Source of the DNA: a virus
Lineage: Duplodnaviria; Caudoviricetes
IMG/VR virus record: IMGVR_UViG_2061766007_000009
Reading direction: 5' to 3' (one strand)
Length of the DNA: 64,000 nucleotides
Both the position numbers and the translations under genes were made by a program. Below the pieces are notes generated by a model. That model worked only from the letters and a program-made list of their open reading frames with translations. It searched no databases and was not told the origin of the DNA. Position 1 is the first letter of the stretch, and every line of letters begins with the position of its first letter. Shown here one piece after another: positions 3,438 through 43,369 of the stretch.

Positions 3438-6400
3438 TTATGGATTGACTGGTTGAGAAGGATTCAGAGTACCTCCAGTTGTGGTTCCAGTGAATTCCGT
3501 TGCCCCAGTGTGTTGTGTCGCCCCAGTAATGTCAATGTCGGGGGTCTCTGGTTCATAGACCATATTAGAGACTGGATAATAATCACCACAGTCCACCACA
3601 CCATTTGCATCACCTATTTGAGCAGTCACGACATTACCAGTTGTAACATCAAATGTTATAGTCTCTGAACTTTGGAATGTTACAACACCCGAAAGTGGGG
3701 TATAGATTTTGTTGCTCGAGTTTTCGAACACTGTCTTAAGGTAGATACCGTTAGCCATCTGGTGAGCACTATCACCCTCACTATCTGTGCCATTACGGAC
3801 AGAAACTACTGTTACACCACTGACGTGGATATCAGTTCCTCCGCCACCACCTGTGGATATCTGCACCATATTACTTCCACTCCATCTCCAGAGAGTGTTG
3901 TCGCTGACACGACAATAAACAACGTTTTCACTAGGAGATTCTGTGAATACGTTTTCATGGTGCAAATATGTCTCAATCTGACGAGTGTCAGTATTGAACA
4001 CCGTCCCAGAATCTGGTACACTGCTAGAACCAACCCACTGCAATACAAGTTTTTGCTCTTCACCAGTAGCAAGACTGCCCACTTTGTTCAAATGAGCAAA
4101 ATTACCACTTGAAATTGCACTACTGATTGCACTGTTAGCATAGTTCTTTGCGGATGTAATTGCTTCATCCTTTGCGGTAGTAATTGCACTAGTGACTCCA
4201 CTCAGACGGAAACCTCCACTCTCAAGTTTTAGGTAAGGTTCACTATGAATGGAAATATTACCTCTGAATGTAACTCCGTCTTGCTCAAGTGTGACACCGC
4301 TTGCGCCAGAATAATTTCCACCAGTCTGTGCGGTCAGCGAGACAACATTATTGGTAATATCAATACCAGTGCCAGCAGATAAAATGTCCTGCTTGCCCTC
4401 AACCGCTCCACTGAGTGCCCTTACTTGCGTATCAACTTCATTAACTTTATCACTCAAAGTCCGAATAGGCGTACCATCAACAAGCAAATAGAGAGACCCT
4501 CCGTGTCCGGCTACTGTTTGTAATATATTATCGCCACCTTGATAAATGTTCACATCCACACCAACACTCTGATTGCCATCGGGTGTTGTACCTGTTACTA
4601 CAGTTGCGGCACGACCACTATTATCGGGCACCACTGGTTTAAAGAAGTCGGAAACTGGTATAGACACTTCTTCTACACTGGTACCAGACTCTGTAGTAAC
4701 CTCATACACAATTACCAAGGAGTTTGCGGAAGAGTCATAAGTAATACCGCTAATTAAAGACCCACCCATAAGATGGATTGGGAATGGGTCATGGACACCA
4801 TTATTGAATAATAGGGTGTTTGTGGTTTCATCATAATCCAATTCAACAGTTGCAAATAAACCCTCATCTGTTTTCTGAATGATGTTATGGGCATCGGGGT
4901 TATTGTTGACGTCGATGTAAATTGTATTTACAACTGGATTAGGGTCATCCTCATCTACCCACACATCAATAGCACTACCCCCAGAAGTATATAGATGTGC
5001 ACCATAAACTAAACCATTCACAGTGCCAACCTTATCAAATGCTATCTCTATAGCATCACTGAGTGCATTATCATTAGCAATTCTTTGGTTGACTTCAGTA
5101 GTAAGTGCCGATTGAGACGCTATACCCGAGGTTGATAGTGTATATACTGTTCCAGAGTCGGACGAATCTTCCTCTTTTTGAAGATATACTTCTTCTTCAG
5201 GAACTTCAATAGTCACCTTATTGCGGTTAATCATATCCTCAAGTTCGTCCTCTCTGTCTCTCGCACGGTTCTCCTCCGCTTCGATTGCTTGGGCGTTTAC
5301 GGTATCAGCACTCTCTCTTGCGGCAGTTTCTTCCGAGATGAGTTGTGCAAGTCTACCCTCTTCGGCTCTTGCACGACTTTCTTCCGCTTCGATTGCTTGA
5401 GCATTTACGGTGTCAGCACTCTCTCTTGCGGCAGTTTCTTCCGAGATAAGTTGTGCAAGTCTACCCTCTTCGGCTCTTGCACGGCTCTCTTCCGCTTCGA
5501 TTGCTTGAGCATTTACGGTATCAGCACTCTCTCTTGCGGCAGTTTCTTCCGAGATGAGTTGTGCAAGTCTACCCTCTTCGGCTCTTGCACGGCTCTCTTC
5601 CGCTTCGATTGCTTGAGTGTTTACAGTGTCGGCACTCTCTCTTGTCTCAGCCTCTTCCGAGATGAGTTGTGCAAGTCTACCCTCTTCGGCTCTTGCACGG
5701 TTCTCCTCCGCTTCGATTGCTTGGGCGTTTACGGTATCAGCACTCTCTCTTGCGGCAGTTTCTTCCGAGATGAGTTGTGCAAGTCTACCCTCTTCGGCTC
5801 TTGCACGGCTCTCTTCCGCTTCGATTGCTTGAGTGTTTACAGTGTCGGCACTCTCTCTTGCAGCAGTTTCTTCCGAAATGAGTTGAGCAAGTCTACCCTC
5901 TTCGGTTCTCGCACGACTCTCCTCCGCTTCGATTGCTTGAGCATTTACGGTGTCGGCACTCTCTCTTGCGGCAGTTTCTTCCGAGATGAGTTGAGCAAGT
6001 CTACTCTCTTCGGCTCTCGCACGATTCTCTTCCGCTTCGATTGCCTGGGCGTTTACGGTATCACCACTTTGCCTTGCATTTATTTCGGCATTCAAATCGG
6101 TCCTTAATACAGAGTCAGCATTCTCCCTTGCGACAGTCTCTGCCGAGATGAGTCCACGCAACTCATTGTCGGCGTTCTCTCTTGCGACAATCTCCGCTTG
6201 AATAGCATTACTCAAGCCAGAATCAATTCTCTCCCTTTCATTAATTTCCGCCACAATAGCATTACGCAACTCAGTATCAGCCTGGGTTCTCGCATTAGTC
6301 TCTGCTACGAGAGCATTTTGTAATGCATTATCAGCATTCTCTCTTGCGGCGATTTCAGCGGCCAAATCAACGCTCATTGTGTCAAGTGCATCTTTAACTG

Positions 6401-7694
6401 TTCCGTTACCATATGCTATGTTTTCGGCAACACCGTTTACTGACAAACCGTGGAACCCAGCATTATGGAATTCTTGAAGAATATTGTGTGGAACAAGTGA
6501 TAATGGTGCAACATTCACATTACCTTTTAGACTGGTATAACCTTGTACACTTCTATCTTTTACCAGTGTAACTGTAGAGTTTGAATTGTCGGTATACCAT
6601 TCCTCAAACAAGTCGCTAATTGGGATTCTAACCTCTTGCCTTTGCCCATCTGTTGTATGATAGATAAGAACAAGTTCCTCTTTTGTTCTATCATAGTAGA
6701 TGTGGTCAAGGACGCTTGCGCTGTTCAGTTGAATCTCGGTTACCTTAGAAATCTCATCCTTGTCAGATTTAGTAAACACCAATGTGTTTGTCAAAGCGTT
6801 GTAGGTAAGGTTCACAGATGCAAAGAGACCACCAACAGAACGAATGATATTAGTCTCATTAGCACTTTCAAAGTTTGATACCACACCACCAGACGAAACG
6901 ACAGACTGGAGATTTGATTTTTCACCACCTGGCAGCCAGCAAACAATATTGCTTGCCTTGAACTCATTGAAAATTTCTTGTAAATTGATATAAACCTTGT
7001 TGTTGTTATTCAATGTAAGGACAATGGATTTCATTGCATTGTCATAGACACCGCTCTTCACGGTATCTTCAAGGTCAATCTCCTTGACTTGGTCATTGAT
7101 GGTCATTTTAAACTTGTTGGTCCCAAGAGTGTGTGCAATGTCAACGTAGACGTAGAGACCGTCATCACCAACTTGCAATGTATTTGTCAAGATGTTACCA
7201 CCCATCATAATGGTTCTTGGGACTCTCACATCAGCAGTCAGACCACTTTCGCCGCGTCTGTTTGCAAGTGTAAGGTCAACTGTTTTTGTATTGGATACGG
7301 TCAAAGACATGGCTTTTATGTGTGACGCCAGTTCTTCAATAGCATCCTCAACGTTGCTGCTTCCAGATATAATTTCGCCAGAAAATGGTTTAAGATTTCC
7401 ATTCTCGTCGAATCCACAAGAACTAACAACATTTGCCAGAATAGTTTTTATTCTTCTTATATCCGCCACATCAGCATCCTGGTCGATAAAGAACACCCCG
7501 GTTCCATCTTCCTTCGTACCTATACCGATAATTGCACTCAAGTCATCTGTTTGACCGTACACAAGGACGAGTGGCTCGCCTATGGCAAGCCTCAAACTAC
7601 CGTCTCCTATGAGATTCAAAACATATCCCTTCGCCTCTTCAACAGTCTGAAAAGGTGAAGAATGATGCAAGAATTGTAATTTGTTTGTGTTCAT
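3438..7694 (-). CDS. Long fibre/adhesin protein with central repeated coiled-coil shaft
   Basis: 1418 aa; beta-rich YD/YN..LxL modules, 36-aa AIEAEESRARAEEGRLAQLISEETAARESADTVNAQ repeats, N-terminal LQFL..GEPLVLVY and near-C-terminal VDCGDY shared with other fibres. Confidence 0.75.
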   Translation of the reverse strand: MNTNKLQFLHHSSPFQTVEEAKGYVLNLIGDGSLRLAIGEPLVLVYGQTDDLSAIIGIGTKEDGTGVFFIDQDADVADIRRIKTILANVVSSCGFDENGNLKPFSGEIISGSSNVEDAIEELASHIKAMSLTVSNTKTVDLTLANRRGESGLTADVRVPRTIMMGGNILTNTLQVGDDGLYVYVDIAHTLGTNKFKMTINDQVKEIDLEDTVKSGVYDNAMKSIVLTLNNNNKVYINLQEIFNEFKASNIVCWLPGGEKSNLQSVVSSGGVVSNFESANETNIIRSVGGLFASVNLTYNALTNTLVFTKSDKDEISKVTEIQLNSASVLDHIYYDRTKEELVLIYHTTDGQRQEVRIPISDLFEEWYTDNSNSTVTLVKDRSVQGYTSLKGNVNVAPLSLVPHNILQEFHNAGFHGLSVNGVAENIAYGNGTVKDALDTMSVDLAAEIAARENADNALQNALVAETNARTQADTELRNAIVAEINERERIDSGLSNAIQAEIVARENADNELRGLISAETVARENADSVLRTDLNAEINARQSGDTVNAQAIEAEENRARAEESRLAQLISEETAARESADTVNAQAIEAEESRARTEEGRLAQLISEETAARESADTVNTQAIEAEESRARAEEGRLAQLISEETAARESADTVNAQAIEAEENRARAEEGRLAQLISEEAETRESADTVNTQAIEAEESRARAEEGRLAQLISEETAARESADTVNAQAIEAEESRARAEEGRLAQLISEETAARESADTVNAQAIEAEESRARAEEGRLAQLISEETAARESADTVNAQAIEAEENRARDREDELEDMINRNKVTIEVPEEEVYLQKEEDSSDSGTVYTLSTSGIASQSALTTEVNQRIANDNALSDAIEIAFDKVGTVNGLVYGAHLYTSGGSAIDVWVDEDDPNPVVNTIYIDVNNNPDAHNIIQKTDEGLFATVELDYDETTNTLLFNNGVHDPFPIHLMGGSLISGITYDSSANSLVIVYEVTTESGTSVEEVSIPVSDFFKPVVPDNSGRAATVVTGTTPDGNQSVGVDVNIYQGGDNILQTVAGHGGSLYLLVDGTPIRTLSDKVNEVDTQVRALSGAVEGKQDILSAGTGIDITNNVVSLTAQTGGNYSGASGVTLEQDGVTFRGNISIHSEPYLKLESGGFRLSGVTSAITTAKDEAITSAKNYANSAISSAISSGNFAHLNKVGSLATGEEQKLVLQWVGSSSVPDSGTVFNTDTRQIETYLHHENVFTESPSENVVYCRVSDNTLWRWSGSNMVQISTGGGGGTDIHVSGVTVVSVRNGTDSEGDSAHQMANGIYLKTVFENSSNKIYTPLSGVVTFQSSETITFDVTTGNVVTAQIGDANGVVDCGDYYPVSNMVYEPETPDIDITGATQHTGATEFTGTTTGGTLNPSQPVNP
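5262..6063. repeat. 108-bp tandem repeat, about 7.5 copies, coding coiled coil
   Basis: TCGATTGC recurs at 5281, 5389, 5497, 5605, 5713, 5821, 5929, 6037 (period 108). Confidence 0.95.
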
Positions 7695-7724
7695 TTTATG
7701 ATATGTCTGTTTTGTTTCTTATTT

Positions 7725-9428
7725 TCAAAATTCTCCGTAATTACCATTAAGGTTGATTACAATGTCGTAGTCGCTATTAATAGCCAAAAGCGTCAACTCA
7801 CCGGTAGTGTTATCGTATGTTCCACCAGTAATGATATGGTCTAGTTTGCCGATTTCACCCCTCAACTCGTCAATTTCTTGCTCAAGTTGCTGTTCGGTCT
7901 GGTTTGCACGCTCGGTTTCAGCGTTGATTGCGTCATATATGTCATTATATACTGCAACGATAACACCATCAACCAATCTAAACTCAACGCCAGATACAAC
8001 TTGTATGTTGTCTGGGTCAGCACCATCGGCAATCGCTTCATCATACGACGAATAAACCTTGTTTGTCGCAGTATCCTTATAGGCTGTGTTGATTACAACT
8101 GTGTCGCCGTTGGACAACTCTTTAATCGCCCATTTCTCTCCATCCCACTCGTAAATGTAGTATGTTTCCCCGAATGCTGGCCATTCAATCTCTCTTGGCA
8201 TATATTCGCTATTCTGGAAAGACACGTTTTCGGTTATCCAGATAGCATAACCAGTATCAGCAGTCTCAGATGGGATAAGCGCAGTCTTATAGGCAATTCC
8301 GTTAATGGTTTCAATCTCGTGATAATTTGAACCGTTGTAGTCCTTTACAAGTCTGACACTATACAATGCATTTTTGGACACGACGTCTTGAATCACCATA
8401 GGGGTGTCGTAGTCGAATCTCTTGATGTAAATTCTGCAAGAGTCACTTTCGGTTCCGTATGGAGTCATTGTCCAGAAGCCAGAACGCATACGGAGGAAGT
8501 CGATTTCGTTGCCGTATTCGCTATATCCAGCACCAAGAATCCTCATACCATACTTATCAACACCAGCAGGCTCAATACCCTTCCTATTTGGATGGTATTT
8601 GCCACAGCAAGTTTCATCCTCCTCGCAGTCACAACCACCAGTGAAAAGAACATCGGAGTCATCCCAGACCCTTGTGTCTTCGCCGCTCACATTTTTTATA
8701 ATACTTGCTGATTTAAGATATTTTCCAGCAAGATATCCCAATTCCGACGGAAACTCGTTGGTGTGGTTTTTATCCCTCTCACAAGGCTCAATAGCGTTGA
8801 GCATACTGTCCCAGTCATTTTTAGTAGGAACCCTCCAGTCGGTGCCTTCCAGGTCCTCATCCATTTTCTTTACGCCACAGAATGGATAAAGATATCCGCA
8901 TTCACTGGCATAATTCTTAACTACATAGCGTTCACCAAGAGTAGCACCAGACGGAAGAACCCCACCAGCAGTGACATCAATATACCCAGAAGTAGGGGTA
9001 AAGAAGCCAGTTCTTTCCAATGGGTTAACACCCAGAGGACTGCTTGGTGTTCCATCACCGATAAGTGTTGAATCTGTGTACACTCTAGAAAGAAGGTTGT
9101 CATCGATGTTGTCTTCAGTGATAAGTCCATCCACAATCACTTCATTGCCGTTATATCTGAAAATGATTGTGCCCTCTCTGCTATCGTAGTCAATTGAAAG
9201 GTCCCTTGTCAACCCATTTGCGAGTTCAGACAAATCTACAACAATCTGTTCTCCACCAACCCTTGTCAAGATAAGCGACATAGTCTCGGCATTGTACTCA
9301 CCACTGATGATGTCAGCCTCTTTAAGGGTGTAAAAATTGCTGTCTATCTCATTGACAGTGAGTTTACAATTCTTTGTAATGTCCTCACTGTATTTAGATA
9401 TCAATTTATAAAAATATAATCCCTTCAT
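7725..9428 (-). CDS. Virion protein with Fibrobacter succinogenes major paralogous (FISUMP)-like domain
   Basis: GYLY..WRVPTKNDWDSML..AGKYLKS..DKYGMRILGAGY..GFWT..YSVRLVKD; N-terminal LTVNEIDSNF fibre-type motif. Confidence 0.75.
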   Translation of the reverse strand: MKGLYFYKLISKYSEDITKNCKLTVNEIDSNFYTLKEADIISGEYNAETMSLILTRVGGEQIVVDLSELANGLTRDLSIDYDSREGTIIFRYNGNEVIVDGLITEDNIDDNLLSRVYTDSTLIGDGTPSSPLGVNPLERTGFFTPTSGYIDVTAGGVLPSGATLGERYVVKNYASECGYLYPFCGVKKMDEDLEGTDWRVPTKNDWDSMLNAIEPCERDKNHTNEFPSELGYLAGKYLKSASIIKNVSGEDTRVWDDSDVLFTGGCDCEEDETCCGKYHPNRKGIEPAGVDKYGMRILGAGYSEYGNEIDFLRMRSGFWTMTPYGTESDSCRIYIKRFDYDTPMVIQDVVSKNALYSVRLVKDYNGSNYHEIETINGIAYKTALIPSETADTGYAIWITENVSFQNSEYMPREIEWPAFGETYYIYEWDGEKWAIKELSNGDTVVINTAYKDTATNKVYSSYDEAIADGADPDNIQVVSGVEFRLVDGVIVAVYNDIYDAINAETERANQTEQQLEQEIDELRGEIGKLDHIITGGTYDNTTGELTLLAINSDYDIVINLNGNYGEF

Positions 9429-9444
9429 ATTGTCATTATGTTAT

Positions 9445-11385
9445 TTAGTAATAAATAGTTTGCGAACTTTGTTTCTTAATTTCATACAGGTAATTATTAC
9501 GGATTTCTCCTACTTCAAGGGGGCAATTATAGAACCTAAATGCCGTCATATAACCAATAAAACTACCGCCGAAATATTTTTCAAGAGGGTATACTCGGTC
9601 TGGTTCCAGCATATAATTCAACTGAACTGTGTCCGCAAGACCTTGAGTTCCTCCACCCAAAGAGATATTATAGGGGACACCCTCTTGTTTTTCATCCACT
9701 TCATTTAATTTATGAAGATTAATTTTGGGTATGTCGTCTGTAACATACACAAGTTTGCCGTTTACATAGAAATACAGACGCATTTTGTTGTCCAGACCTC
9801 CGTGCACCTTTATATTAACCACGCACCACTCATCTTCACTTATAACACCAGAAAACGACGTTCCAGAGTATATTTGCGTCTTGTCGTCGCCGGAAATTTC
9901 GCAATCTACACCCAAAAAACGGTATCCGATTGACCCATCGTCTAAAATTTGGAAGGCAAGGGCGTTATTGTATATGTCATCGTAAAATACAGCCTCAGAA
10001 TACTCATTTTCGGCACTAGCCTTCAATTCTTCGATGTTTTTCACCGTATAACCAGTACAAGTCCGGTTCATAAGGAGGAAAAGGTTGCCTTTATACTGTT
10101 TTTTCGACCCAACATAGACCGCCTCGGTCCCTTCAACCCAATTTCTTGTCGTATATCCGTTGCAAGTGCGGTCGAAGAGCAAAAATTTGTTGTCAGTCTT
10201 GATATAGTACTGATTTGGGTCTGTCAGCGACAAACCATTGTCTAATTCGTACGAAAAATCGGAAATATCGAGGTCTGGGGCGATATAATCCACGTCATAA
10301 TCAAGACCGTCGAAATCGCTGATGTAACCATCCTCCCCAAAGAGGTCACAACCCCAAATTTCGTCATTTTCGACTGGATTTTTGTCATAAACCCTCTTAT
10401 ATCGCCTTGGACAACCACAAACTTGCATAAATGGTACAAGATGATACGAACCATTTGGATTCAAATGACTATCTGTGCAAGCAGAACGAGGAATTACCGT
10501 CGAAGAACCAAAATTTGGCTCAAAATCAATAAAATCGTCCAAATCATCGGCAACTCTATGGTCAAAATACGACTGGTCTATGTCATTTTCACTTAAATCT
10601 GGGTTTGGGTCGTCAATAAATGCGTCTATCAGATACGTTTCTGGGTTTATTTCGCCACCCTCAACATAATCATCGGGAGAAATAGCAAAACACTCGTCAT
10701 CCGAGTCCTTCTTATACTGATAAATCCATTTATTTTCGGCACGAGTGCCAATATAGAAGAAAATTCCTTTATTTTCCGGATATTTGTCGTTCAAAGTCTT
10801 TGTTGACTCGGGTTCAAGGTCTGATTTTTTAAGAACAAACTCGAATTCCCAGTCATCTGACTCCAATTTGTAAGGGAGAATGGCATATTCATCACAAGAT
10901 GTCATAAAAAACCCTTGATAGAAGCCTCCATTGAGTTTTAATACCCCATTTTTCACCTCTGAAGGGTATTCATACACAAGAGTGTTCCCTGTAACTTGGT
11001 GTAATTGCAGTCTTGTATCCCCAGATGGCACCGAATACGTACTTCCAGTCAAGATTTTAACGAATTCTTCGTTGTTGATGCGGTCTTTTCTGTAAGAAAA
11101 CAGACCATTATCAATACCAGTGTAACCAATATTCGCTTTTGTGAATCCAGTGCTCACAGCATCCTCCCAAGAATAGGAATCCATACTATAAAGCCACTTA
11201 TCGCCAACACACTCCGGCCTTTCCGTATCAATATATGACACGAGGCATCTGTCTTGCAACGCCGCACCAGAAAAATCGTATTCACCAGTATACATTCGGT
11301 CTTTGTTGATGAAAAAATCCCAGTACTCGTCAAGGTTTACCCTCAATTTAAGGTTATGGTAATTGTTGTTAAGTATATTGGACAT
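9445..11385 (-). CDS. Structural protein with concanavalin A/LamG-like beta-sandwich signature
   Basis: W.FEFVLK, IFFYIG, RLYFYVNGKL, FIGYMTAFRFYNCPL motifs; late motif upstream. Confidence 0.55.
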   Translation of the reverse strand: MSNILNNNYHNLKLRVNLDEYWDFFINKDRMYTGEYDFSGAALQDRCLVSYIDTERPECVGDKWLYSMDSYSWEDAVSTGFTKANIGYTGIDNGLFSYRKDRINNEEFVKILTGSTYSVPSGDTRLQLHQVTGNTLVYEYPSEVKNGVLKLNGGFYQGFFMTSCDEYAILPYKLESDDWEFEFVLKKSDLEPESTKTLNDKYPENKGIFFYIGTRAENKWIYQYKKDSDDECFAISPDDYVEGGEINPETYLIDAFIDDPNPDLSENDIDQSYFDHRVADDLDDFIDFEPNFGSSTVIPRSACTDSHLNPNGSYHLVPFMQVCGCPRRYKRVYDKNPVENDEIWGCDLFGEDGYISDFDGLDYDVDYIAPDLDISDFSYELDNGLSLTDPNQYYIKTDNKFLLFDRTCNGYTTRNWVEGTEAVYVGSKKQYKGNLFLLMNRTCTGYTVKNIEELKASAENEYSEAVFYDDIYNNALAFQILDDGSIGYRFLGVDCEISGDDKTQIYSGTSFSGVISEDEWCVVNIKVHGGLDNKMRLYFYVNGKLVYVTDDIPKINLHKLNEVDEKQEGVPYNISLGGGTQGLADTVQLNYMLEPDRVYPLEKYFGGSFIGYMTAFRFYNCPLEVGEIRNNYLYEIKKQSSQTIYY

Positions 11386-11408
11386 ATTATGAATGCGTTT
11401 TTACACCT

Positions 11409-11422
11409 AATAAATATTTATT
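11409..11422. promoter_or_regulatory. Palindromic bidirectional late promoter AATAAATATTTATT
   Basis: Perfect palindrome holding TATTTAT on both strands, between divergent starts at 11385(-) and 11440(+). Confidence 0.7.
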
Positions 11423-11439
11423 GGAAAACAAATTAAATA

Positions 11440-11673: not shown

Positions 11674-11685
11674 AAACAAGTTATT

Positions 11686-12189: not shown

Positions 12190-12221
12190 TATAATAAATG
12201 TGATTAAAATTTATATAAGAT

Positions 12222-13609: not shown

Positions 13610-13627
13610 AAAAAAATAGTTACGACA

Positions 13628-14290: not shown

Positions 14291-14302
14291 AGTAAATCAC
14301 AC

Positions 14303-14330
14303 AAAAAGGCATCAGAAATGATGCTTTTTT
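14303..14330 (+). terminator. Intrinsic terminator
   Basis: AAAAAGGCATCA-gaaa-TGATGCTTTTTT. Confidence 0.75.
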
Positions 14331-30662: not shown

Positions 30663-30666
30663 AGAA

Positions 30667-30693
30667 AAACGGAGGTTTTAAACCTCCGTTTTT
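30667..30693. terminator. Bidirectional terminator
   Basis: AAAACGGAGG-ttttaaa-CCTCCGTTTT between convergent genes. Confidence 0.8.
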
Positions 30694-31738: not shown

Positions 31739-31842
31739 ATTTCTTTTTTTATATAAATATTTGTTTGCATTGCAATTATTTACGATTCCTTCCAAGTTCC
31801 ACCGATTTTAACGTACATATTCGACTTACATATCAGCGACAA

Positions 31843-34929: not shown

Positions 34930-34946
34930 AACTAATTGTTCAATTA

Positions 34947-35456
34947 TCAATAAAATTCAGCGACTACAGCACAGTTGTTCACAACATTTATCTCGTATGT
35001 GCGACCCGCAGTGTACGTCGGTGTCGTATGATTAGCGTACATAACGCTATTCGGCAAGGTTATGGCACAACCGTTGCCAGCAATAAATCTGATGGAGTAC
35101 TCTTTCGTGAATCCGCTCTCCTCGGCACTTGTGTTGAACACAACAGTCATGGAACGAGCAACGGTGCCGAAATCATACATTTTATAAGGGTCAATTGTAA
35201 CGGAAGCGGCGGGTGTCGAGGTAACATACGGTGTCTTGCCTTCATATTGAGCCATAGCACTCAACAAAGTATTATCATTGCTGAATGATACAACTTCATT
35301 ACTATCATTTTTTATGAAAAGAGTCTCGTATCCATCTGCATAATTTATTGCGATTTCACCGCTTTGCAACGAATTCGACGCAGGCTGTGCCGGCACCACA
35401 ATATTATTTGTGGTAGATGTCCTATTTGAGCGTTTATTTTTTACAGTTTGTGCCAT
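34947..35456 (-). CDS. Fibre adaptor with Mtd_N/hyaluronidase-N-like N-terminus
   Basis: KNKRS..P..LQSGEIAINY..ETLFIKN; C-terminal ITLP..V.Y..P....G.TYEINV. Confidence 0.65.
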   Translation of the reverse strand: MAQTVKNKRSNRTSTTNNIVVPAQPASNSLQSGEIAINYADGYETLFIKNDSNEVVSFSNDNTLLSAMAQYEGKTPYVTSTPAASVTIDPYKMYDFGTVARSMTVVFNTSAEESGFTKEYSIRFIAGNGCAITLPNSVMYANHTTPTYTAGRTYEINVVNNCAVVAEFY

Positions 35457-35591
35457 ATAACATATCTTCACTTATCTAATATAAATATTTGCTAAAGTCT
35501 CATTTTTAATAGCGTTGGAACACAAGCAGATAAAAAAATACGCCCACCAAAGGGCGGGCGTACCTTTCTTTTATCGAAAAACTCTTTTGTA

Positions 35592-38500
35592 TTAATACTC
35601 GCCACAATCTACAGTACCAACCGCAAGAACGGTTGCACCGTCAGTAGTGGCTTTAACAATACTCTCCTCATCGATATTAACTTCAACCTTAGTGTTGCCA
35701 CCTTGAGTTGTACTTACGGTAGTAGTCTCACCATTAACAACTTCGTTGGCTGAAATTGACTTATACAACTTGGCAAGTGCCTGGTTTACGGTGTCGCTAG
35801 TTGTTGGGGCACCACTAACCGAAGCGTCTGCGGCTTGAGTTGCATAGTCACTGCCAAGGTTAATACTGTCACCAGACAGAGTAACCGACGCAATTGATGA
35901 ACTAACAGTGCCAGTCACATCGTTAACGATGATGTTGGTCAATGCAGACTGAATCTTGTTCTGAAGGTCTGTTGACAACTTAGCACTAGTCACGTTACCG
36001 TCAGCAATCTTGGCGGTTGTTACTGCACTATCAGCAATCTTACCAGAAGTTACAGCACCGTCGGCAATCTTGCCAGAGGTAACCGCATCGTCAGCAAGGT
36101 GAGATGCCGAAATTGAAGATGCCTTCACGTCAGCACTAACCACACGGTTGTTGAGTGTCATATCGATAGTGTCACTATCAGCAACGCCAGTAACAGATGC
36201 GTCAATTGCGTTCTGTACATCTGTCGACAACTTAGCACTAGTCACATTGCCATCGGCAATCTTGGCAGTAGTAACAGCACTGTCAGCAATCTTAGCGGTA
36301 GTAACAGCACCATTTACAATGTTAGATGCACTTACTGCATCTGCCTTAAGGTCAGCCGAGATGTTATAACCGTCTATTGTTACATCAACGGTTGTTCCAC
36401 TGTTGTTTGCAGTATAAACATCAACAAGTTTATTTGCTGGGATATAGATGTAATCACTATTCTCATCGCCATTGGCAATTTCCAACTTAACGTATGTGTC
36501 ACCAGAAGTCAAACCAGCACTTGGTGCACTTGCACCGTGACCTCTCTTTTCGGTACCATCAGCGGTGATTACAGTACCCGCTGAAACTACCATATCTTGT
36601 GCAATGTTGAAGATTGCAACAGTATCTTCGCCTTGTTTCAAAGTATAATCACTACCGTCAACAAGAACCTTATGGTCACCAACTTCTGCCCCAGCGTGCC
36701 ACAGCGTCAACTCCGAAGCGGCATCAAGTTTATCAATCTCGCTCTTCAACTCCTCAACAGCGCCTTGTACTGTGGTAGCAGTCATAGCAGATACAGCGGC
36801 TGGTGTGTTGTCGAACGAAACCGCACTTGCGGCAAGGTTTGCCTGACCGATACTTACCACACCGCTAGTCTGTGTGATGGAGGTAATATACTTACCACTA
36901 TCTGCGTTAACGGTTCCGCTCATTGCGGCGATTAAGCCAGCGTTAGTGTCAGCCTTTCCGCTAACCGCTTCAAGGTCGCTTGCACTTGCAATACCGCTAG
37001 TCGAAATGGTGTAGGTCACACCACTGCTAGTTGCCGCTGTTGCAACACTCAAGAAATCAGAATCCTCTTCCACATTAGTCTTGGCTGAGTTAATCTTAGC
37101 CTCAAGGTCTTCGTCGGCGGCAGTTCTTGCACTTGTCTCGTCAGCGAGGTCTTGTGCATTTTGGGCAGACTTCTTATCGAGTTTGCCAATTGCCGATTCA
37201 ACTGTGTCAGCGGTGGTTACTTGACCAACATTTGCGGCTGGAGTGTAACCAGTAGACAATGAAGTCTGTGTTGCATCAACACTAATGACAAGTTTCTTAT
37301 TTTGGACTGTTTGGTCAGTTCCATTAAATGAACCACCAGTAATGCCATTTGCAACAGTACCAGAAATCTCATTGATTGCAGCATCGAGTTTACTGTCAGC
37401 ATCCTCGAGGTCTGTTGCGGCACTTATATAATGTGCATTGGTGTCTGGAGTATAAGCGGTTGCACCAGTAGTTTCACCGATAATGTTGTAAAGATTGGTG
37501 TCAGCAGTTTCACGTGCGGTCTCTTCCGCCTCCAATTCACCAGAAGTTGCAAGACCACTATCGGTTACTGTATATGTAACACCATTTGCTGAACTTCCAT
37601 CAGTATAGGCAGTTGTTACATTAATATGATTAGAACCAGTAACAACAGTCTTTGATGCGTCGATTTCAGCCTCGAGTTCACTCTTGAGGGTTGCATCTTG
37701 ACCACTTGCATATTCTTCTGCTCTTGTTTCTGCGCTAGCAATCTCATTCATCAAATTACCGCTTACGGTCTGAGTGAGAGCAGTTGCAATGTTGTGCTTG
37801 TAGTCGATAGCACTCTGAATATTGCTAACCTTAAAACCATCAGCACCAACGGTCAATACATTAGCGGTTGCACTTTCACCAGTTGTAACAGCCTCGCTTG
37901 TGTTGTCAACAACACCAGTGAATGTTGGGTGGTCCACACCAGTTGTCACCTTGGTAATACCACTACCAGCCTCATAAGTGTCAACGAGACCGCTCAAATT
38001 AATTGGAGTTGTCTGAATGCCAGCATCAGTGTTCCAAGTGAATGTGAGGACCTTGGTCCCTTCGTCGTATGTGACGCTCTGCAAGAAACCGTCCTTAACA
38101 AAATCGGTAGCATCGACAGTGCTGATTACATCACCAGTGCCACCCTTACCGCAAAGGTTGATGAATGTCTTGCCAGAATCTGCATCAGTACCTTGAACAA
38201 TGTCAAGACTCAAGGTTGAGAGCAGACCGCTTGAACTTTGACTCAACACTTGGTCGGTTGAATCAATTTTCAATGAAATTGTATTTGCGGTTTCACCTTG
38301 CCCAGCAGGTGTAACTTCAATAGCGTTTGACCCAGTATAAGGAGTCAAACCAGTTGAAGCAACATAAAGTTGATTATTACTGTTTACCTTAATGGTGCTA
38401 TCATCAACCAAAACCGACACATCGGTTCCAGCGGCAGCACTTGTAGCCGAAATAGCGGTGCCACCAGTAACTCGGTCGCCATTGACAATAGTTGTCAAGT

Positions 38501-38891
38501 TGGCAACCTTTTCATCAGCATATCTCTTGGCACCTTCAACAGAAGTGTCGCCACTTACAGATGAGTTGTCACCACTCAATGCTACGAGTTGTGAGGTAAC
38601 GGTGTTAGCAGTTGTCACACCAGTGCCAACATACGATTGAATCATTGACTCAATTGCTGCGTCGTCTGTGTAGAAAGTTACGCCAGTCTTGCTGTCAGCA
38701 TTGTGCTTAATACCAAGAAGAGTCTTGTAATTTGCACTCTCACTAGTCTCTTTGTAGCGAGCAAGAATAGGGGAACCATCGGGGAGTTCAGCCGCTTGAT
38801 TGTTGATAGCGGATTTGGCGTTAGCAAGACCTACCACGTTGATGGGAGCCTTATTCCTTAAGAATTGGATAATTTGTGTTCCTTTTGCCAT
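35592..38891 (-). CDS. Modular tail/capsid fibre protein
   Basis: IQFLRN..DGSPILARY N-terminus, DFVKDGFL module, KIADGAVT repeats, ends VDCGEY. Confidence 0.75.
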   Translation of the reverse strand: MAKGTQIIQFLRNKAPINVVGLANAKSAINNQAAELPDGSPILARYKETSESANYKTLLGIKHNADSKTGVTFYTDDAAIESMIQSYVGTGVTTANTVTSQLVALSGDNSSVSGDTSVEGAKRYADEKVANLTTIVNGDRVTGGTAISATSAAAGTDVSVLVDDSTIKVNSNNQLYVASTGLTPYTGSNAIEVTPAGQGETANTISLKIDSTDQVLSQSSSGLLSTLSLDIVQGTDADSGKTFINLCGKGGTGDVISTVDATDFVKDGFLQSVTYDEGTKVLTFTWNTDAGIQTTPINLSGLVDTYEAGSGITKVTTGVDHPTFTGVVDNTSEAVTTGESATANVLTVGADGFKVSNIQSAIDYKHNIATALTQTVSGNLMNEIASAETRAEEYASGQDATLKSELEAEIDASKTVVTGSNHINVTTAYTDGSSANGVTYTVTDSGLATSGELEAEETARETADTNLYNIIGETTGATAYTPDTNAHYISAATDLEDADSKLDAAINEISGTVANGITGGSFNGTDQTVQNKKLVISVDATQTSLSTGYTPAANVGQVTTADTVESAIGKLDKKSAQNAQDLADETSARTAADEDLEAKINSAKTNVEEDSDFLSVATAATSSGVTYTISTSGIASASDLEAVSGKADTNAGLIAAMSGTVNADSGKYITSITQTSGVVSIGQANLAASAVSFDNTPAAVSAMTATTVQGAVEELKSEIDKLDAASELTLWHAGAEVGDHKVLVDGSDYTLKQGEDTVAIFNIAQDMVVSAGTVITADGTEKRGHGASAPSAGLTSGDTYVKLEIANGDENSDYIYIPANKLVDVYTANNSGTTVDVTIDGYNISADLKADAVSASNIVNGAVTTAKIADSAVTTAKIADGNVTSAKLSTDVQNAIDASVTGVADSDTIDMTLNNRVVSADVKASSISASHLADDAVTSGKIADGAVTSGKIADSAVTTAKIADGNVTSAKLSTDLQNKIQSALTNIIVNDVTGTVSSSIASVTLSGDSINLGSDYATQAADASVSGAPTTSDTVNQALAKLYKSISANEVVNGETTTVSTTQGGNTKVEVNIDEESIVKATTDGATVLAVGTVDCGEY

Positions 38892-39001
38892 GTGTTTTCT
38901 ATTATACTTTAATTTAATTTATTATTTCTATCTCTAATAAATATCAAAAAGAAAGAGATATTGGGGAAGCGTTTTTCACATCTCCCCCAATACTATCCTT
39001 A

Positions 39002-41473
39002 TTAATAAGTTCCACAGTCAATTATATTGGTATTTCTACCATTTGACAGCAGAATCGAAGCGTTAATTTCTGACGATGCTGTTGACGCAGAAGTTTGTGT
39101 AACATAACCACTAGCAGTCATACATTTTCCAGCGTACATCCAACCATCCGCAGTGATGTTTCCATCAACGTCTGTAGTAGCAGAAGACCGTAGGTCCGTA
39201 GTTCTAATGGCTTTCGTTACCATAGACCCACCAGAAGAGACAGTTGCACCAGTCACAAATGACACGCCCTCAGTAGTGGTCGCAGTGCCAGTAGTGGTCT
39301 TCACCAGAATAGGCGTTAGACCACCCTCGTAAAGAGTCTGTGTTACAGCACTATCTGGGTCAACTGGCAGACCTATCCAAGATGTACCACTAATTGTAGC
39401 ACCCTTAACGGTTGTACCACTAATAGTTGGCGATTTAACAGAGGTAGATGCTGTAACATCATTTGCGGTCGCCGTACCAGTTATTGTTAACGAACTACCG
39501 CTAAATGCCGCACCAGAGATGTTTCCAGTGGCCTTAACAGTACCAGTCACTATCAACGAACCACCACTGAATGTTGCCGCAGACACATTGCCAGTGGTTT
39601 TAATGTTACCAGTCTTATCAATTGTCGCTGCACTTGAGAAATAAACCTTATTTCTTGCAGAAGCACTTGTGCCGTTATCAACCTTAATTATGATTGGATT
39701 AGATGTACTTCCAGTAAATTGCTCTTGTGTTACCTTAGAGTCGGCTGGCAATTTAAATGCAGTACTCCTTACGTAGGTTGGGTGTCCATATCCATCGGTA
39801 TCAATAGAGGTAACCGCAGTAAATTGACCGCCATCTGAAATCTGGGTTGGGTCACCTGCTGGCATAACACTATTTGTAGTAATAGTCTTATGGGCAATTG
39901 TAACGGTTCCCGTAGTCACATTACCACCACCGCTTAAGGGACTGGTAGTGCTGATATCTGAAATATCGATATTATTCTGAATTACATCCCAATTTGTTGA
40001 AGCAGTACCAGAGGTTGTATCTTTATTACAGATAAACATATCACCAACCTCAACCTTTTGTCCAGCAACATAACCAGATACAGCAACCTTGTACACATCA
40101 CCCTTCTCTGCCGCTGGCAAAGATGCACCAGGAGATGTTGATTGACCGCTTACGGTTCCTTTGTATACCAAAGCATCTGCTACGTCAACGAGTGCCGCAC
40201 TAATAGCCTCAGTAACCGCACTCTGGGACATAACTGTACTACCAGTAGCAGTCCCAGTAGTTTCCACAACTTTTACAATACCTTCGCCAGTCGAGGATGC
40301 TACTGGCAAACCCTTATAAGTACCACCAGAGATGGTTGCACCGTAAGCACTTGTAGCACTAATAGTTGGTGCCTTAACGTGAGTAGCGGCACTAATCGTG
40401 TTAGCAGACACATTACCACCTCTGATATTACCGCTTGCCGTTACGGAACCACCACTAATGGTTGCACCGTAAGCACTTGTGGCACTAACTGTTACACCTA
40501 AAGCACTTGTACCGCTAATTGTTGCCGATTTCACAGATGTCTTTGCAGAAAGGTCACCAGCATTGTTGACAGTCACATTGTTTGCGAAATACGCCCCACT
40601 GGTAACCGCACTGTTTGTGGTATCCATTTTGGTCAAAATTGGATAGTTGCCAGTCGCCAAAGAACCCATACCAGTTTGTGTCATTGCGGTATCTGGGTCA
40701 ACGGGTAAATTCTCATAGGTCGTAGCACTAACTGTAACGCCCTTAACAGTTCCACCACTGACGGTTGTAGCACTAATGCTTGGCGAACTAACAGATGTCT
40801 TGGCAGAGAAGTTACCAGACCCGTCGATAGTTGCTGCGGTTACAAATGCTACACCAGCAGTAGTGCTTGCAGTACCAGTACCGTTCTTTAACAGAATAGG
40901 TCTTGCTGTGGTATCGGTGTATCCACTCTGTGTTGTGGCACTATCGATATTGTCGGGCAGTTGGTACTTAGCCAATTTTATCATAGACATATGCCCCATT
41001 CCATCATCAGTAACAGCAGTAACCGCATTGAAAGTACGGTTCGTAATAGTCGTTGTTGCTTGGTCTGTAACGGTAGTTACATTACCAGTATTGTGCCTAA
41101 TCGTAACAGTTGACGCACTTAATTGACTACCCCCACTCAAACCAGTGCCAGCGGTAACGGTTGTAGATGATAAAGCACATTGATTAATTGCCGCCCAGAG
41201 TAACTCTGCACTTTCATAGATAGTTACGCCAGTTTTGCCATTTACACCTTTGTGAACAATACCATAGATAGTTTGCACATCGCCAGTACTTGCACTGCCA
41301 GCGGCATTATAACGAGCAAGAATCGCTTGACCGTCAACAATGTCACCCGATGTGGTAGAACCAGTGGCAATGCCCCTCATTCCAGTAATCGCCGCATTTC
41401 TTGCAGCCGCACCATCCGCTCCAGTATAAATGGTGTTATTTCTTAAAAATTGAATTTTTTTCGTAATAGCCAT
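39002..41473 (-). CDS. Thr/Ser/Gly/Ala-rich fibre protein
   Basis: IQFLRN..DGQAILARY N-terminus, ALVYKGTV..KGDVYKV..VEVGDMFIC..WDVIQNN module, ends IDCGTY. Confidence 0.75.
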   Translation of the reverse strand: MAITKKIQFLRNNTIYTGADGAAARNAAITGMRGIATGSTTSGDIVDGQAILARYNAAGSASTGDVQTIYGIVHKGVNGKTGVTIYESAELLWAAINQCALSSTTVTAGTGLSGGSQLSASTVTIRHNTGNVTTVTDQATTTITNRTFNAVTAVTDDGMGHMSMIKLAKYQLPDNIDSATTQSGYTDTTARPILLKNGTGTASTTAGVAFVTAATIDGSGNFSAKTSVSSPSISATTVSGGTVKGVTVSATTYENLPVDPDTAMTQTGMGSLATGNYPILTKMDTTNSAVTSGAYFANNVTVNNAGDLSAKTSVKSATISGTSALGVTVSATSAYGATISGGSVTASGNIRGGNVSANTISAATHVKAPTISATSAYGATISGGTYKGLPVASSTGEGIVKVVETTGTATGSTVMSQSAVTEAISAALVDVADALVYKGTVSGQSTSPGASLPAAEKGDVYKVAVSGYVAGQKVEVGDMFICNKDTTSGTASTNWDVIQNNIDISDISTTSPLSGGGNVTTGTVTIAHKTITTNSVMPAGDPTQISDGGQFTAVTSIDTDGYGHPTYVRSTAFKLPADSKVTQEQFTGSTSNPIIIKVDNGTSASARNKVYFSSAATIDKTGNIKTTGNVSAATFSGGSLIVTGTVKATGNISGAAFSGSSLTITGTATANDVTASTSVKSPTISGTTVKGATISGTSWIGLPVDPDSAVTQTLYEGGLTPILVKTTTGTATTTEGVSFVTGATVSSGGSMVTKAIRTTDLRSSATTDVDGNITADGWMYAGKCMTASGYVTQTSASTASSEINASILLSNGRNTNIIDCGTY

Positions 41474-41527
41474 TGTTTTTATATTTTTTAATAAGGTGCC
41501 CCATTAAGAGGAGCACCTCTGATTATT

Positions 41528-43369
41528 TTATTCAATAGTATATGTTCCAGCGTCAAGTCCAACGAGGTAAAGTCCGCCGTCTGTGTCAAACTCAAGCCCC
41601 GAAGCGGTAACCGCTGAAGCGGTCTGCTTGGTACCGTCGCTCGACAACTTAACACTAACTCTCTTGTCATTGGTTCCACTGACTGCATTGACGTTGATAC
41701 CGTTACCAGAAACAACATCCACCGCATCATTCACTGCCACATCAAGTTTGGCAATCGCTGTTTGCACAGTATCAGCGGAAGTGATACGAGTATAAGCAGT
41801 TTCGGGTTCGTAATCATCACCTACAGTAAGGTCTGCCGCATCAACCTCAAGTTTTGCGATTGTGCCTTCAGCCTCCTCAGTTGAGAGAACATTGTTGAAT
41901 TTTACTGTGCTGAGTACACCAGATGTTGCAGAGATAATCTTGTCTTCAAAATATTCAAGAATATTGTTGAGACTTGCACCAGAGGTGAGAATATGACTTC
42001 CGGGAATATCAGAACCTACAGTAAGGTTGTCTGTGTAAATGACAATCTCCTCAACGTGATTGTTTGCTTGTGCACTTACACCATTAACTTTGACAATCTT
42101 CAGATAGTCGTCAAGGTCATCTTGCAAACTGGAATCCAATTTGTCGGCTGTGATTGCACCGTCAGCGATTTCGTTTGTATCAACTGCACCACTGGCGATT
42201 TTACCGTTAGTTACCGCACCGTCAGCAATCTTATCCTCAGTGACTGCATCGTCGGCAATCTTATCCTCGGTAATTGCATTGTCGGCGATTTCGTCTGTAC
42301 CAACCGCACCACTGGCAATCTTGTCACTTGTAATTGCGTCATCAGCGATTTCGTCTGTACCAACCGCACCACTGGCAATCTTGTCGCTTGTGATTGCGTC
42401 ATCAGCAATCTTGTCTTCGGTAATTGCACTGTCGGCGATTTGCTCTGTACCAACTGCACCGCTGGCAATCTTGCCGCTAGTAACTGCACCATCGGCGAGT
42501 TCTTGTGTGTCAATTGAGCCAGCAACGATTGTTGCGGAAATTACATTGCCACTACTGATAGCGAGTTGAACTTGTGAAGCATTCTCTTCTGCGGTATACT
42601 CATCAGCAAGGTCTTTAACATTGACATATACCAGATTGTGTTTATCGTCAGCATTAGCGAGTTGCAATTTCATATACTTCTCACCTGCGGTCAAGCCAGC
42701 AGTTTCAGCACTTGCACTTGTACCTTGTTTTTCCGTTCCGTCTGCGGTGATAACTTCACCAGAAGAAACCACCATATCTTTGGGAATATCAATAGTGCCA
42801 ACAGTTTTATTACCTTGACGTATAAGATATTTTAATCCATCCATTTGTGTGGCCACACTAACGGTAAGGTCGTCAGTTAAACCACTTTCGAGGTCTGCAA
42901 TGTCATCCTTTACCTCATCGAGGGCATCGGCCACATTTGTCGCACTAAACGACACACTATCCAGACTAATTTGTTCTGCTGAGATTGCGGCTCTTGAGAT
43001 TTCAAGAGTACCACCAGACATATCGACTGCGGTCACAAATTCATTCTGAACTGGAGTGTCAGTATAGTTCAGATTCTCACTGATATACTCTTCAATAAGT
43101 TCATTGACCTTCGATTCATCAATATCACCATTAATAATGGTCATTGTCTTTGTAGCACTAAGTGGGTCACTACCAGCAATGTACCTAATACCAAGGAGAG
43201 ACTTCACACTACTAGCCTGGTGAGGGGCCTCATCTGTGTAATACCTTGCAAGAATGGGTGTACCATCTTGCAATACTGGTGCGTTTCCACTGTTCAAGTA
43301 AGCAACGGCAGCCTCATAAGATTCAAATGGGGTTGTGTTGCGGAATAATTGTAAATGTCTTGTTGCCAT
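41528..43369 (-). CDS. Modular fibre protein with KIA(D/S)(G/D)A(V/I) repeats
   Basis: LQLFRN..DGTPILARY N-terminus, IDIPKDMVV module, 10-aa repeats, LDAGTY near the end. Confidence 0.75.
   Translation of the reverse strand: MATRHLQLFRNTTPFESYEAAVAYLNSGNAPVLQDGTPILARYYTDEAPHQASSVKSLLGIRYIAGSDPLSATKTMTIINGDIDESKVNELIEEYISENLNYTDTPVQNEFVTAVDMSGGTLEISRAAISAEQISLDSVSFSATNVADALDEVKDDIADLESGLTDDLTVSVATQMDGLKYLIRQGNKTVGTIDIPKDMVVSSGEVITADGTEKQGTSASAETAGLTAGEKYMKLQLANADDKHNLVYVNVKDLADEYTAEENASQVQLAISSGNVISATIVAGSIDTQELADGAVTSGKIASGAVGTEQIADSAITEDKIADDAITSDKIASGAVGTDEIADDAITSDKIASGAVGTDEIADNAITEDKIADDAVTEDKIADGAVTNGKIASGAVDTNEIADGAITADKLDSSLQDDLDDYLKIVKVNGVSAQANNHVEEIVIYTDNLTVGSDIPGSHILTSGASLNNILEYFEDKIISATSGVLSTVKFNNVLSTEEAEGTIAKLEVDAADLTVGDDYEPETAYTRITSADTVQTAIAKLDVAVNDAVDVVSGNGINVNAVSGTNDKRVSVKLSSDGTKQTASAVTASGLEFDTDGGLYLVGLDAGTYTIE
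42140..42510. repeat. 30-bp (10-aa) coding repeat with 60-bp superperiod
   Basis: CAACCGCACCACTGGCAATCTTGTC at 42301 and 42361; about 12 ten-residue units. Confidence 0.85.

Follow-up and report, generated by a model that had tools for sequence, protein, structure and literature searches.

Why would a phage encode four long fibre proteins that all begin with the same N-terminal domain and all carry the same short motif at or near their carboxyl ends? The window analysed here, a 64,000-nucleotide stretch of DNA, comes from a large uncultured T4-like phage in which a previously undescribed domain, here named QFLRN-type, is used several times in a row. The preliminary description of this DNA had proposed that the C-terminal peptide of one fibre trimer joins the N-domain of another, and gene order together with the T4 analogy partly supports that core idea. 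Our preferred reading, to which we give a probability of about 0.6, is that the fibre genes of the window encode segments of composite fibres joined end to end by a joint of the T4 gp36-gp37 type. For brevity the C-terminal motif is called the plug and the N-terminal domain the socket.

Fibre genes and their N-terminal domain

The genes concerned are as follows.

43403-45433, minus strand: 676-aa fibrous protein, encoded just downstream of the capsid gene
41528-43369, minus strand: 613-aa fibre, QFLRN-type N-domain at approximately 43070-43369 (HMM E 1.3e-23)
39002-41473, minus strand: 823-aa fibre, QFLRN-type N-domain at approximately 41174-41473 (HMM E 1.7e-21)
35592-38891, minus strand: 1099-aa fibre, QFLRN-type N-domain at 38562-38891 (HMM E 5.3e-27)
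34947-35456, minus strand: 169-aa putative adaptor (from the ATG at 35456), gp37-N-type and XD2-like domains
31843-34950, minus strand: 1035-aa adhesin-like protein, S/T-rich region and Fn3_assoc/CHB_HEX_C repeats
9445-11385, minus strand: 646-aa protein, upstream of the FISUMP gene in all relatives examined
7725-9428, minus strand: 567-aa FISUMP protein, Pfam Fib_succ_major (PF09603)
3438-7694, minus strand: 1418-aa fibre, divergent QFLRN-type N-domain at 7407-7694 (HMM E 1.3e-16)

The QFLRN-type domain comprises the approximately 100 N-terminal residues common to the four minus-strand fibres of 1418, 1099, 823 and 613 aa. Identity over this stretch is 25-34%, residues Q9, G39, Y46 and G60 are invariant, and the domain HMM matches these four ORFs of the window only (E 1e-16 to 5e-27), which bears out the homologous N-terminal block that had been noticed before. 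The consensus of this alpha/beta domain of about 90 residues is QFLRN..DGxPILARY..LLGI, and the 1418-aa fibre reads LQFLHH..GEPLVLVY. Tail-fibre matches in PHROG were obtained for the 1099-aa fibre and for repeats of the 613-aa fibre, while the 1418-aa fibre contains approximately nine tandem coiled-coil repeats.

The domain is known from about 180 protein clusters, has no Pfam family and no solved relative, and no database description of it was found. Its profile gave no match below E 0.5 among PDB sequences, Foldseek with the domain model returned nothing at E <= 0.001, and tblastn of the domain and of P0028 against 50,697 cultured-phage records matched nothing. A search for related loci with the 1099-aa protein yielded two weak loci and no more. 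A likeness to the SH2-domain fold was set aside, as the best VIA Z score of only 4.8 lies within the noise range of the tool.

Fibres attached to the virion usually combine a conserved N-terminus with a variable rest (PMC12143355), and the window fibres fit this pattern. The four proteins might be alternative receptor-binding proteins, each anchored through its N-domain to a site of one kind on the baseplate or a hub, and the C-terminal motif a foldon-like trimer cap or folding nucleus, a beta-hairpin whose DG turn precedes aromatic residues, with no docking role. The independent folding of the N-domain as a globular unit also speaks for such parallel attachment, which we nevertheless regard as unlikely on the evidence of the following sections.

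A short motif at the carboxyl end

In a six-frame translation of the whole 64 kb, the pattern D[CA]G[TED]Y occurs in these four fibre ORFs and nowhere else, against a rough chance expectation of about 0.2 matches in the window. It supplies the last residues of the 1099-aa fibre (VDCGEY, 35595-35612) and of the 823-aa fibre (IDCGTY, 39005-39022), lies 3 residues from the end of the 613-aa fibre (LDAGTY, 41540-41557, in the ending LDAGTYTIE), and in the 1418-aa fibre (VDCGDY, 3579-3596) is followed by a 46-residue low-complexity tail. The earlier observation that the fibres end in or near this motif is hence confirmed; the internal position in the 1418-aa fibre is a point in favour of parallel attachment. 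The FISUMP protein, which passes the Fib_succ_major gathering threshold of 33.9 bits (41.1 bits, E 2.9e-10, residues 172-362), ends in the variant plug NGNYGEF (7728-7748) and has no N-domain, also as previously noted.

The two signatures occur together across the family. When the N-domain profile was run against 1.84 billion representative proteins, 102 members of at least 300 aa were counted, and 74 of these full-length members have the motif within their last 14 residues (66 by the strict pattern and 8 by a relaxed one). Of the 71 proteins whose strict motif lies no more than 10 residues from the carboxyl terminus, 47 end exactly with it. Conversely, a search that took the C-terminal end as query gave 26 matches, every one of them with the N-domain. 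The motif also extends beyond the family, with unrelated fibres that end in IDCGTY encoded on over 100 viral contigs. The sequence ahead of the motif belongs to many unrelated repeat types. What they all share is therefore no more than about six residues, too short a stretch to make a folding domain, and this argues against the foldon-like role, although in one subfamily the conserved stretch is longer (..NVLQIKNDGLYLDSTWDCGEY). A DNA pattern for WDCGEY followed by a stop had no match in the viral contigs. PDB sequence searches with two IDCGTY proteins matched internal fibre repeats only and never the end, and the motif strings brought up no relevant literature.

The presence of both ends on one polypeptide, in the four window proteins and in mini-proteins of 127-230 aa elsewhere, allows a different explanation, in which the plug binds the socket of its own trimer, giving a folded-back, stowed fibre, or that of another copy, giving hair-like polymers. 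Subtypes of plug and socket co-vary (LLRS with WDCGEY), as such self-docking would lead one to expect, but this may reflect common descent. An AF2 monomer of a 127-aa natural mini-member, built from a 78-sequence alignment, has a confident N-domain and no confident contact between it and the plug, which counts against self-docking; as the plug region reaches a pLDDT of only 50-60, the model is silent on docking as such. With two different proteins involved both in T4 and in the neighbouring plug-only and socket-only genes described below, we consider self-docking improbable.

The gene that follows the plug

In the window, plug gene and socket gene are adjacent and on the same strand in the succession 613 -> 823 -> 1099 -> 169 aa. 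In viral contigs, a gene ending in IDCGTY and a stop is followed by a socket-motif gene in 37 of 47 unique pairs, compared with 49 of 529 other adjacent pairs (odds ratio 36, p 2e-25). Many of these 49 have variant plugs upstream (IDGGTY, IDGGTF, IDYGTF). The rule also holds within the fibre family: among socket-bearing fibres only, the next gene carries a socket in 19 of 38 cases with a plug and in 6 of 84 without (odds ratio 13, p 2e-7). In these gene-pair statistics the sequence pairs are de-duplicated, yet phylogenetically dependent. Parallel attachment gives no reason for the motif to predict a socket gene directly downstream, whether within the fibre family or more widely.

Nor does it account for plug-only proteins that precede socket-only proteins. 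Unrelated pairs of this kind consist of a 227-aa family followed by a 570-aa protein, a collagen-like 212-aa protein followed by one of 503 aa, and a 630-aa fibre (with a sub-threshold match to Pfam Phage_T7_tail only) followed by a 191-aa protein. Natural fusions, with plug and then socket inside one ORF, were absent from the fetched proteins and loci.

The rule has exceptions, and plugs without a subsequent socket gene are what parallel attachment would allow. They make up 12 of the 38 socket-bearing plugged fibres; the 1418-aa fibre has no socket gene after its plug, and in some relatives the last small protein with both ends abuts a polymerase gene. Looking upstream of 20 QFLRN-type genes, we found a DxGx[YF] end in 9, a FISUMP-type (N/D)xGx[F/W/I] end in 6, an 'LLGQIAHE' end in 3 and nothing comparable in 3. 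The last member of a series lacks a plug, and in one relative (L005) this QFLRN-type protein adjoins a bAvd gene, an indication that the receptor-binding end is diversified.

The preliminary description had drawn a single chain that starts at the FISUMP protein and ends in the adaptor. The order of the genes, which relatives share, suggests instead two series, here called A and B. In series A the 'LQFxHH'-type N-domain gene always comes next after the FISUMP gene, and the 646-aa protein is a possible proximal partner. In series B the first QFLRN-type gene is preceded by the 676-aa protein, which has neither N-domain nor plug; the lack of a DxGxY end in this protein counts against the reading of joined segments. 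Its own C-terminal end, ..LLGQIAHETDEYQS, is conserved, with counterparts in proteins of 402 aa (L005, ..LLGQIAHEVYDNG) and 311 aa (L134, ..LLAQIAHETYD..), and in three phages a protein with this type of end precedes the first QFLRN-type gene. The 676-aa protein is a candidate for the base of series B.

A second socket type and the putative adaptor

In the 37 pairs counted above, the socket that follows the IDCGTY gene is of the T4 gp37-N/Mtd_N type. That the plug is a specific partner of the QFLRN-type domain finds no support, as in most other phages the same plug precedes domains of gp37-N/Mtd_N type. The window has one such domain, at the N-terminus of the 169-aa protein (VKNKRS..LQSGEIAINY, 35289-35456). 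In hhalign against residues 1-100 of T4 gp37, this N-terminus, aligned with 33 other downstream N-termini, matches gp37 residues 1-51 with a probability of 98.4% (E 4.7e-15, 49 columns). Pfam Mtd_N (PF18454, gathering threshold 26.3 bits) is reached by 10 of the 34 aligned N-termini, with a best E of 3.3e-13, while the 169-aa protein itself has no Pfam match at E <= 1; it is accordingly a sub-threshold relative of Mtd_N by profile only. The preliminary description was right that this protein lacks the C-terminal peptide, its end being ..NNCAVVAEFY; the proposed relation of its N-terminal block to the QFLRN block is not borne out by profile comparison, hhalign giving a probability of 12-14%.

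The C-terminal domain of the 169-aa protein (34950-35234) is an XD2-like beta-sandwich. The AF2 model has a pLDDT of 84.7 overall and above 90 for residues 73-169. VIA places the domain at Z 7.5-8.4 from TSP4, the Pa223 spike and the KP1 baseplate, with the next unrelated structure at Z 4.4, and Foldseek matches it to TSP4 with E 1.5e-3 and probability 0.99. As judged from the model, the domain shares the XD2-like attachment fold, a match in fold only. The pair formed by the adaptor gene and the adhesin gene is conserved in other phages, and N-termini like that of the 1035-aa protein, which has three Fn3_assoc/CHB_HEX_C repeats and a C-terminal repeat region, come after the adaptor domain elsewhere (L126, 497 aa; L128). 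Fold and gene pair together support the earlier view of a socket-only adaptor carrying an adhesin.

One and the same adaptor domain is found behind both sockets, the gp37-N type in P0177-P0179 and the QFLRN type in P0187, P0194, P0076, P0096 and P0144. This exchange argues for the two socket types being functionally equivalent. It also shows that modules are shuffled, one adaptor standing behind different N-domains and one N-domain before different C-terminal ends, as would be the case if the conserved ends were recombination cassette boundaries, kept as homology for module swapping between phages and having no role in protein contact. At just 18 bases the motif is short, and the scan pattern admitted every synonymous codon; among phages with unrelated DNA it is the protein sequence that is conserved, and the gp36/gp37 ends of the phages PhT2 and STML-198 are conserved along with a known protein contact (PMC3004832), all of which makes the cassette explanation very improbable, more so than self-docking.

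Proposed assembly of composite fibres

Under the preferred reading of joined segments, each segment would presumably be a homotrimer of parallel chains. Segments with a continuation would end in a plug, a hydrophobic residue followed by D/N-x-G-x-Y/F at or near the carboxyl end, and the product of the next gene would start with a small N-terminal socket that caps it. This phage would use two socket types, gp37-N/Mtd_N in the 169-aa protein and QFLRN in the four long fibres. Read from gene order, series B would be wired 676 -> 613 -> 823 -> 1099 -> 169-aa XD2-like adaptor -> 1035-aa adhesin, and series A (646 aa) -> FISUMP protein -> 1418 aa. The docking of plug into socket, the trimeric state and the proximal-to-distal polarity are our deductions, as is a product that would be either one long chain or a branched structure.

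We offer more tentatively, and with some doubt, a broader proposal: that a portable code, a D/N-x-G-x-aromatic end with a gp37-N/Mtd_N or QFLRN cap, lets diverse phages concatenate fibre segments in gene order; that this jumbo phage stacks three long segments, the XD2-like adaptor and the adhesin into one appendage, several hundred nm long or branched; and that a new, larger socket arose to fit this plug or was co-opted for it. Should the joint be real, two short signatures would allow one to predict how fibre segments of uncultured phages are ordered and which of them are partners, many 'hypothetical' fibre genes could be better annotated, and chimeric fibres in laboratory phages would have natural break points. 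The plug would then have, in the QFLRN-type domain, a second socket of different structure.

Relation to known systems

The closest parallel is the distal half of the T4 long tail fibre, in which gp36 ends in VQDFGYY and gp37, encoded by the next gene, starts with IQFKRS..GELAINL. The two genes are adjacent and in proximal-to-distal order, like the plug and socket genes of the window, and the same pair of ends occurs in Acinetobacter phage PhT2 (VILDFGTF) and Salmonella phage STML-198 (IQDFGYYS). Parallel attachment leaves this pair unexplained. It is established that T4 gp36 binds gp37 in its N-terminal region (PMC3004832). That the gp36 end is what touches gp37 we infer from the parallel, N-proximal arrangement of the T4 fibre proteins, and our reading would assign a candidate function to the last six residues of gp36. 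The systems differ in that the joint occurs once per T4 fibre and seemingly three to five times in the window, where four of the five sockets are the larger alpha/beta domain, whose profile aligns with gp37-N over the first 11-13 columns only (MA..IQF[KL]R[SN]K, hhalign probability 12-28%). Pfam Phage_T4_gp36 (PF03903) matches none of the nine window proteins at E <= 0.01, while T4 gp36 itself scores 178 bits. Matches to 'gp36' of RB16 and Vibrio phage K567 involve the gp36 N-terminus only, in a different layout, and were set aside.

In Bordetella phage BPP-1, the receptor-binding trimer Mtd is considered to be fixed to the tail fibre by its N-terminal beta-prism (PMC10743442), which resembles the joint proposed here in that one trimer is mounted on another fibre protein through a small N-terminal domain. 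Bbp9, the fibre protein of BPP-1, was considered as plug bearer; it ends in ..ADLGGIA and not in DxGxY and so lends no support. The 'chain-like fibres' described for phage A1002 arise by a different mechanism, with dimers threaded along a rope protein.

The 169-aa protein resembles the T2-type gp38 adhesins, which are mounted on the tip of gp37, as a small protein encoded right after a long fibre gene and thought to be distal; unlike gp38, to which no sequence or fold similarity was found, it has its attachment module at the N-terminus. Its C-terminal domain has the fold of residues 79-180 of TSP4, whose XD domains belong to the branched tailspike complexes of CBA120/G7C-type phages (VIA Z 7.5, 91 residues, rmsd 3.4), with further matches to the Pa223 capsid spike (Z 8.4) and the KP1 baseplate (Z 8.2). 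Sequence identity to these attachment domains is 8-11%, the likeness being in fold only, and the domain precedes the adhesin gene, as expected of an adaptor.

Source of the window and its fibre proteins

On comparative evidence and the precedent of T4, we predict that the fibres encoded in the window are joined end to end, with a probability of about 60%. The preliminary description had proposed that the C-terminal DxGxY-type peptide of one trimer (the plug) docks in the N-terminal domain of the next (the socket); such joints are favoured here, but not the single chain of fibres that it also envisaged, nor a private pairing of plug and N-domain.

The window contains a T4-type head module of portal, prohead protease, scaffold, large terminase and a gp23-like capsid protein; this last is approximately 40% identical to the capsid proteins of Flavobacterium phage immuto, Microcystis phage Mel-JY01 and an uncultured 484-kb phage. 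Also present are a gene for a family-B DNA polymerase and, on the minus strand, two clusters of long genes of fibre-like composition, the clusters being separated by a plus-strand block with glycosyltransferase-like genes (PHROG hits) at 14391-15617 and 28315-29124. As relatives sharing the gene order sit on contigs of 240-350 kb, a jumbo T4-like phage is the most likely source. The proteins considered are the following.

3438-7694, minus strand, fibre of 1418 aa
7725-9428, FISUMP protein of 567 aa
ATG at 35456, putative adaptor of 169 aa, followed by the putative adhesin of 1035 aa
35592-38891, minus strand, fibre of 1099 aa
39002-41473, minus strand, fibre of 823 aa
41528-43369, minus strand, fibre of 613 aa

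The two ends of the fibres

The N-terminal ~100 residues of the four fibres (the QFLRN-type N-domain, with a divergent 'LQFLHH' version in the 1418-aa fibre) align with 25-34% identity and several invariant positions, and an HMM of this domain matches these ORFs and no others in the window (E 1e-16 to 5e-27), bearing out the homology first described. The motif D[CA]G[TED]Y does lie at or near the fibre ends, as had been claimed; in a six-frame translation of the whole window it occurs only in the same four ORFs, at the C-terminal end in two, three residues from it in one and 46 in one. The FISUMP protein matches Pfam Fib_succ_major and has the C-terminus NGNYGEF, and the adaptor starts MAQTVKNKRS...LQSGEIAINY and finishes ..NNCAVVAEFY. 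Within the 1418-aa fibre (5100-6060) lie about nine near-identical tandem coiled-coil units of ~33 residues, ..ESRLAQLISEETAARESADTVNAQAIEAEE(N/S)RARAEE.., an array whose length recombination could vary.

A profile of the N-domain was searched against 1.84 billion representative proteins (cut-off E <= 1e-3), giving 179 proteins. Co-occurrence of the two ends extends beyond the window, with [D][CA]Gx[YF] present in the last 14 residues of 66 (strict) plus 8 (relaxed pattern) of the 102 carriers of at least 300 aa. In 47 of 71 proteins (any length, strict motif at most 10 residues from the end) nothing follows the motif, and its Asp is preceded by I, W, L, F or V. There are also natural mini-proteins, 127-230 aa long, that comprise hardly anything beyond the N-domain and plug ends. 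A query of 50 C-terminal residues from one member found 26 proteins, all with the N-domain (26/26) and all close relatives.

AF2 predicts the N-domain to be a confident alpha/beta unit (helix-three strands-helix, pLDDT >90 over residues ~10-80), with the plug region of the monomer at pLDDT 50-60. The QFLRN-type domain corresponds to no Pfam family; a sequence search of solved structures gave no relative, a fold search with the model gave no significant match, and tblastn against 50,697 cultured-phage records gave no match.

The plug outside the QFLRN family

Viral contigs were scanned for IDCGTY codons directly ahead of a TAA stop, and these were found in more than 117 places, nearly all at the ends of long ORFs. 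The plug is not a private partner of the QFLRN N-domain: of 75 complete long ORFs ending in IDCGTY, just 2 contain that domain. Most of the others start with the well-known pattern 'hydrophobic-x-hydrophobic-K/R-R/K-S/G/N ... P ... L..GE(L/I)A(V/I)N'. Pfam Mtd_N is reached by some, and others are collagen-like, have a sub-threshold Phage_T7_tail match only, or belong to a 227-aa family lacking such a start. Many unrelated fibre repeat types lie upstream of the motif, and therefore the shared stretch amounts to about six residues. Judged by this distribution among sequences, the plug is a signal of fibres in general.

Gene order

The gene downstream of an IDCGTY gene in the scanned contigs usually begins with the N-motif. 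Counting unique, de-duplicated adjacent pairs, which are phylogenetically non-independent, a socket gene comes next after 37 of 47 plug genes as against 49 of 529 other pairs (odds ratio 36, p 2e-25), and among those 49 variant plugs are frequent, for example IDGGTY, IDGGTF, INGGTY or IDYGTF. Among socket-bearing fibres only, the values are 19/38 with a plug and 6/84 without (odds ratio 13, p 2e-7). Tandem paralogy does not account for the rule, because unrelated pairs of a plug-only and a socket-only gene also obey it. The main rival reading is that the fibres are attached in parallel and that the motif caps each trimer, but this leaves the dependence on gene order unexplained.

In the window the genes suggest two separate series, rather than the single chain from FISUMP protein to adaptor initially proposed. 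One runs from a 676-aa protein through the fibres of 613 aa (LDAGTYTIE), 823 aa (IDCGTY) and 1099 aa (VDCGEY) to the 169-aa adaptor, with its gp37-N-type socket, and the 1035-aa adhesin; the other runs from a 646-aa protein through the FISUMP protein to the 1418-aa fibre with its divergent socket. Both arrangements are kept in relatives, where FISUMP proteins end in NFGTF, NFGEI, NFGKF or NGNIW and an LQFxHH- or LLRS-type fibre comes next, in many cases with a small N+C protein after it. GC-rich hairpins lie past the 1099-aa gene (35530-35565, followed by a T run) and the 613-aa gene (41495-41527), so the fibre series may be transcribed as several units and not as one operon.

Upstream of the QFLRN-type genes (20 examined) we found DxGx[YF] in 9 cases, a FISUMP-type variant in 6, LLGQIAHE in 3 and nothing comparable in 3. 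In the window, and in two related loci, L005 and L134, the gene ahead of the first QFLRN gene encodes a protein with a ..LLGQIAHE.. end, perhaps marking a junction of a third kind. The C-terminal end of the 676-aa protein, ..(W)VE..M.V..LLGQIAHE.. (43403-43520), is conserved in the shorter 402-aa and 311-aa proteins of L005 and L134.

In both of these loci the last member of the series is without a plug. In L005 (16639-18855) a bAvd gene, an accessory gene of diversity-generating retroelements (DGRs), directly precedes this member, a 598-aa protein with a QFLRN-type N-domain, as expected of a distal, diversified receptor-binding end; the protein is probably a DGR-diversified receptor-binding tip. 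The protein that closes the L134 series resembles it at the C-terminal end.

The putative adaptor and adhesin

Comparison of homologues identifies the C-terminal ~95 residues of the adaptor as a mobile domain: some proteins have it after a gp37-N-type start, others after a QFLRN-type start, and it also occurs alone. Profile comparison of the two N-domain types did not demonstrate homology, and this exchange is therefore the best evidence that both would do the same job.

The AF2 model of the adaptor domain (pLDDT >90) has phage attachment modules as its best structural matches, the Pa223 capsid spike (Z 8.4) and KP1 baseplate (Z 8.2), with residues 79-180 of CBA120 TSP4 at Z 7.5; these are well above the next unrelated match (Z 4.4), and the Foldseek E is 1.5e-3. 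The downstream gene starts similarly in three places, namely the window, the T4-like relative L126 and the crAss-like contig L128. The attachment-type predicted fold and this similar gene start support the suggestion that the protein at 35456 is a socket-only adaptor carrying the adhesin.

In the crAss-like contig (Crass_capsid, CrAss_Ring_1) the same domain and then an adhesin-like gene lie at L128:5260-8767. Gene calls for this region differ between two assemblies (391 vs 439 aa and 121 vs 403 aa), which may reflect stop-codon reassignment. Just past the adhesin gene of the window, a 367-aa protein (30692-31795), very rich in Q/N/Y/A and with a poly-Q/R tail, has no family match.

Comparison with T4 gp36-gp37

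In T4, the gp36 trimer makes up the proximal part of the distal half-fibre and binds to gp37 at the N-terminal region of the latter (PMC3004832). The C-terminus of gp36 is ..IVIKDSVQDFGYY, and gp37, whose start contains IQFKRS..GELAINL, is the next gene. No structure showing this joint at the level of residues was found; we infer that the last residues of gp36 make the contact with gp37. An alignment of the 169-aa adaptor with 33 other downstream N-termini (34 in all) matches residues 1-51 of T4 gp37 with an hhalign probability of 98.4%. T4-like pairs of end and start are also present in Acinetobacter phage PhT2 (VILDFGTF, then ..IKFLRSS..GEIAINL) and in Salmonella phage STML-198. Given the T4 pair and the match to the gp37 N-terminus, the gene-order rule would generalise the gp36-gp37 joint.
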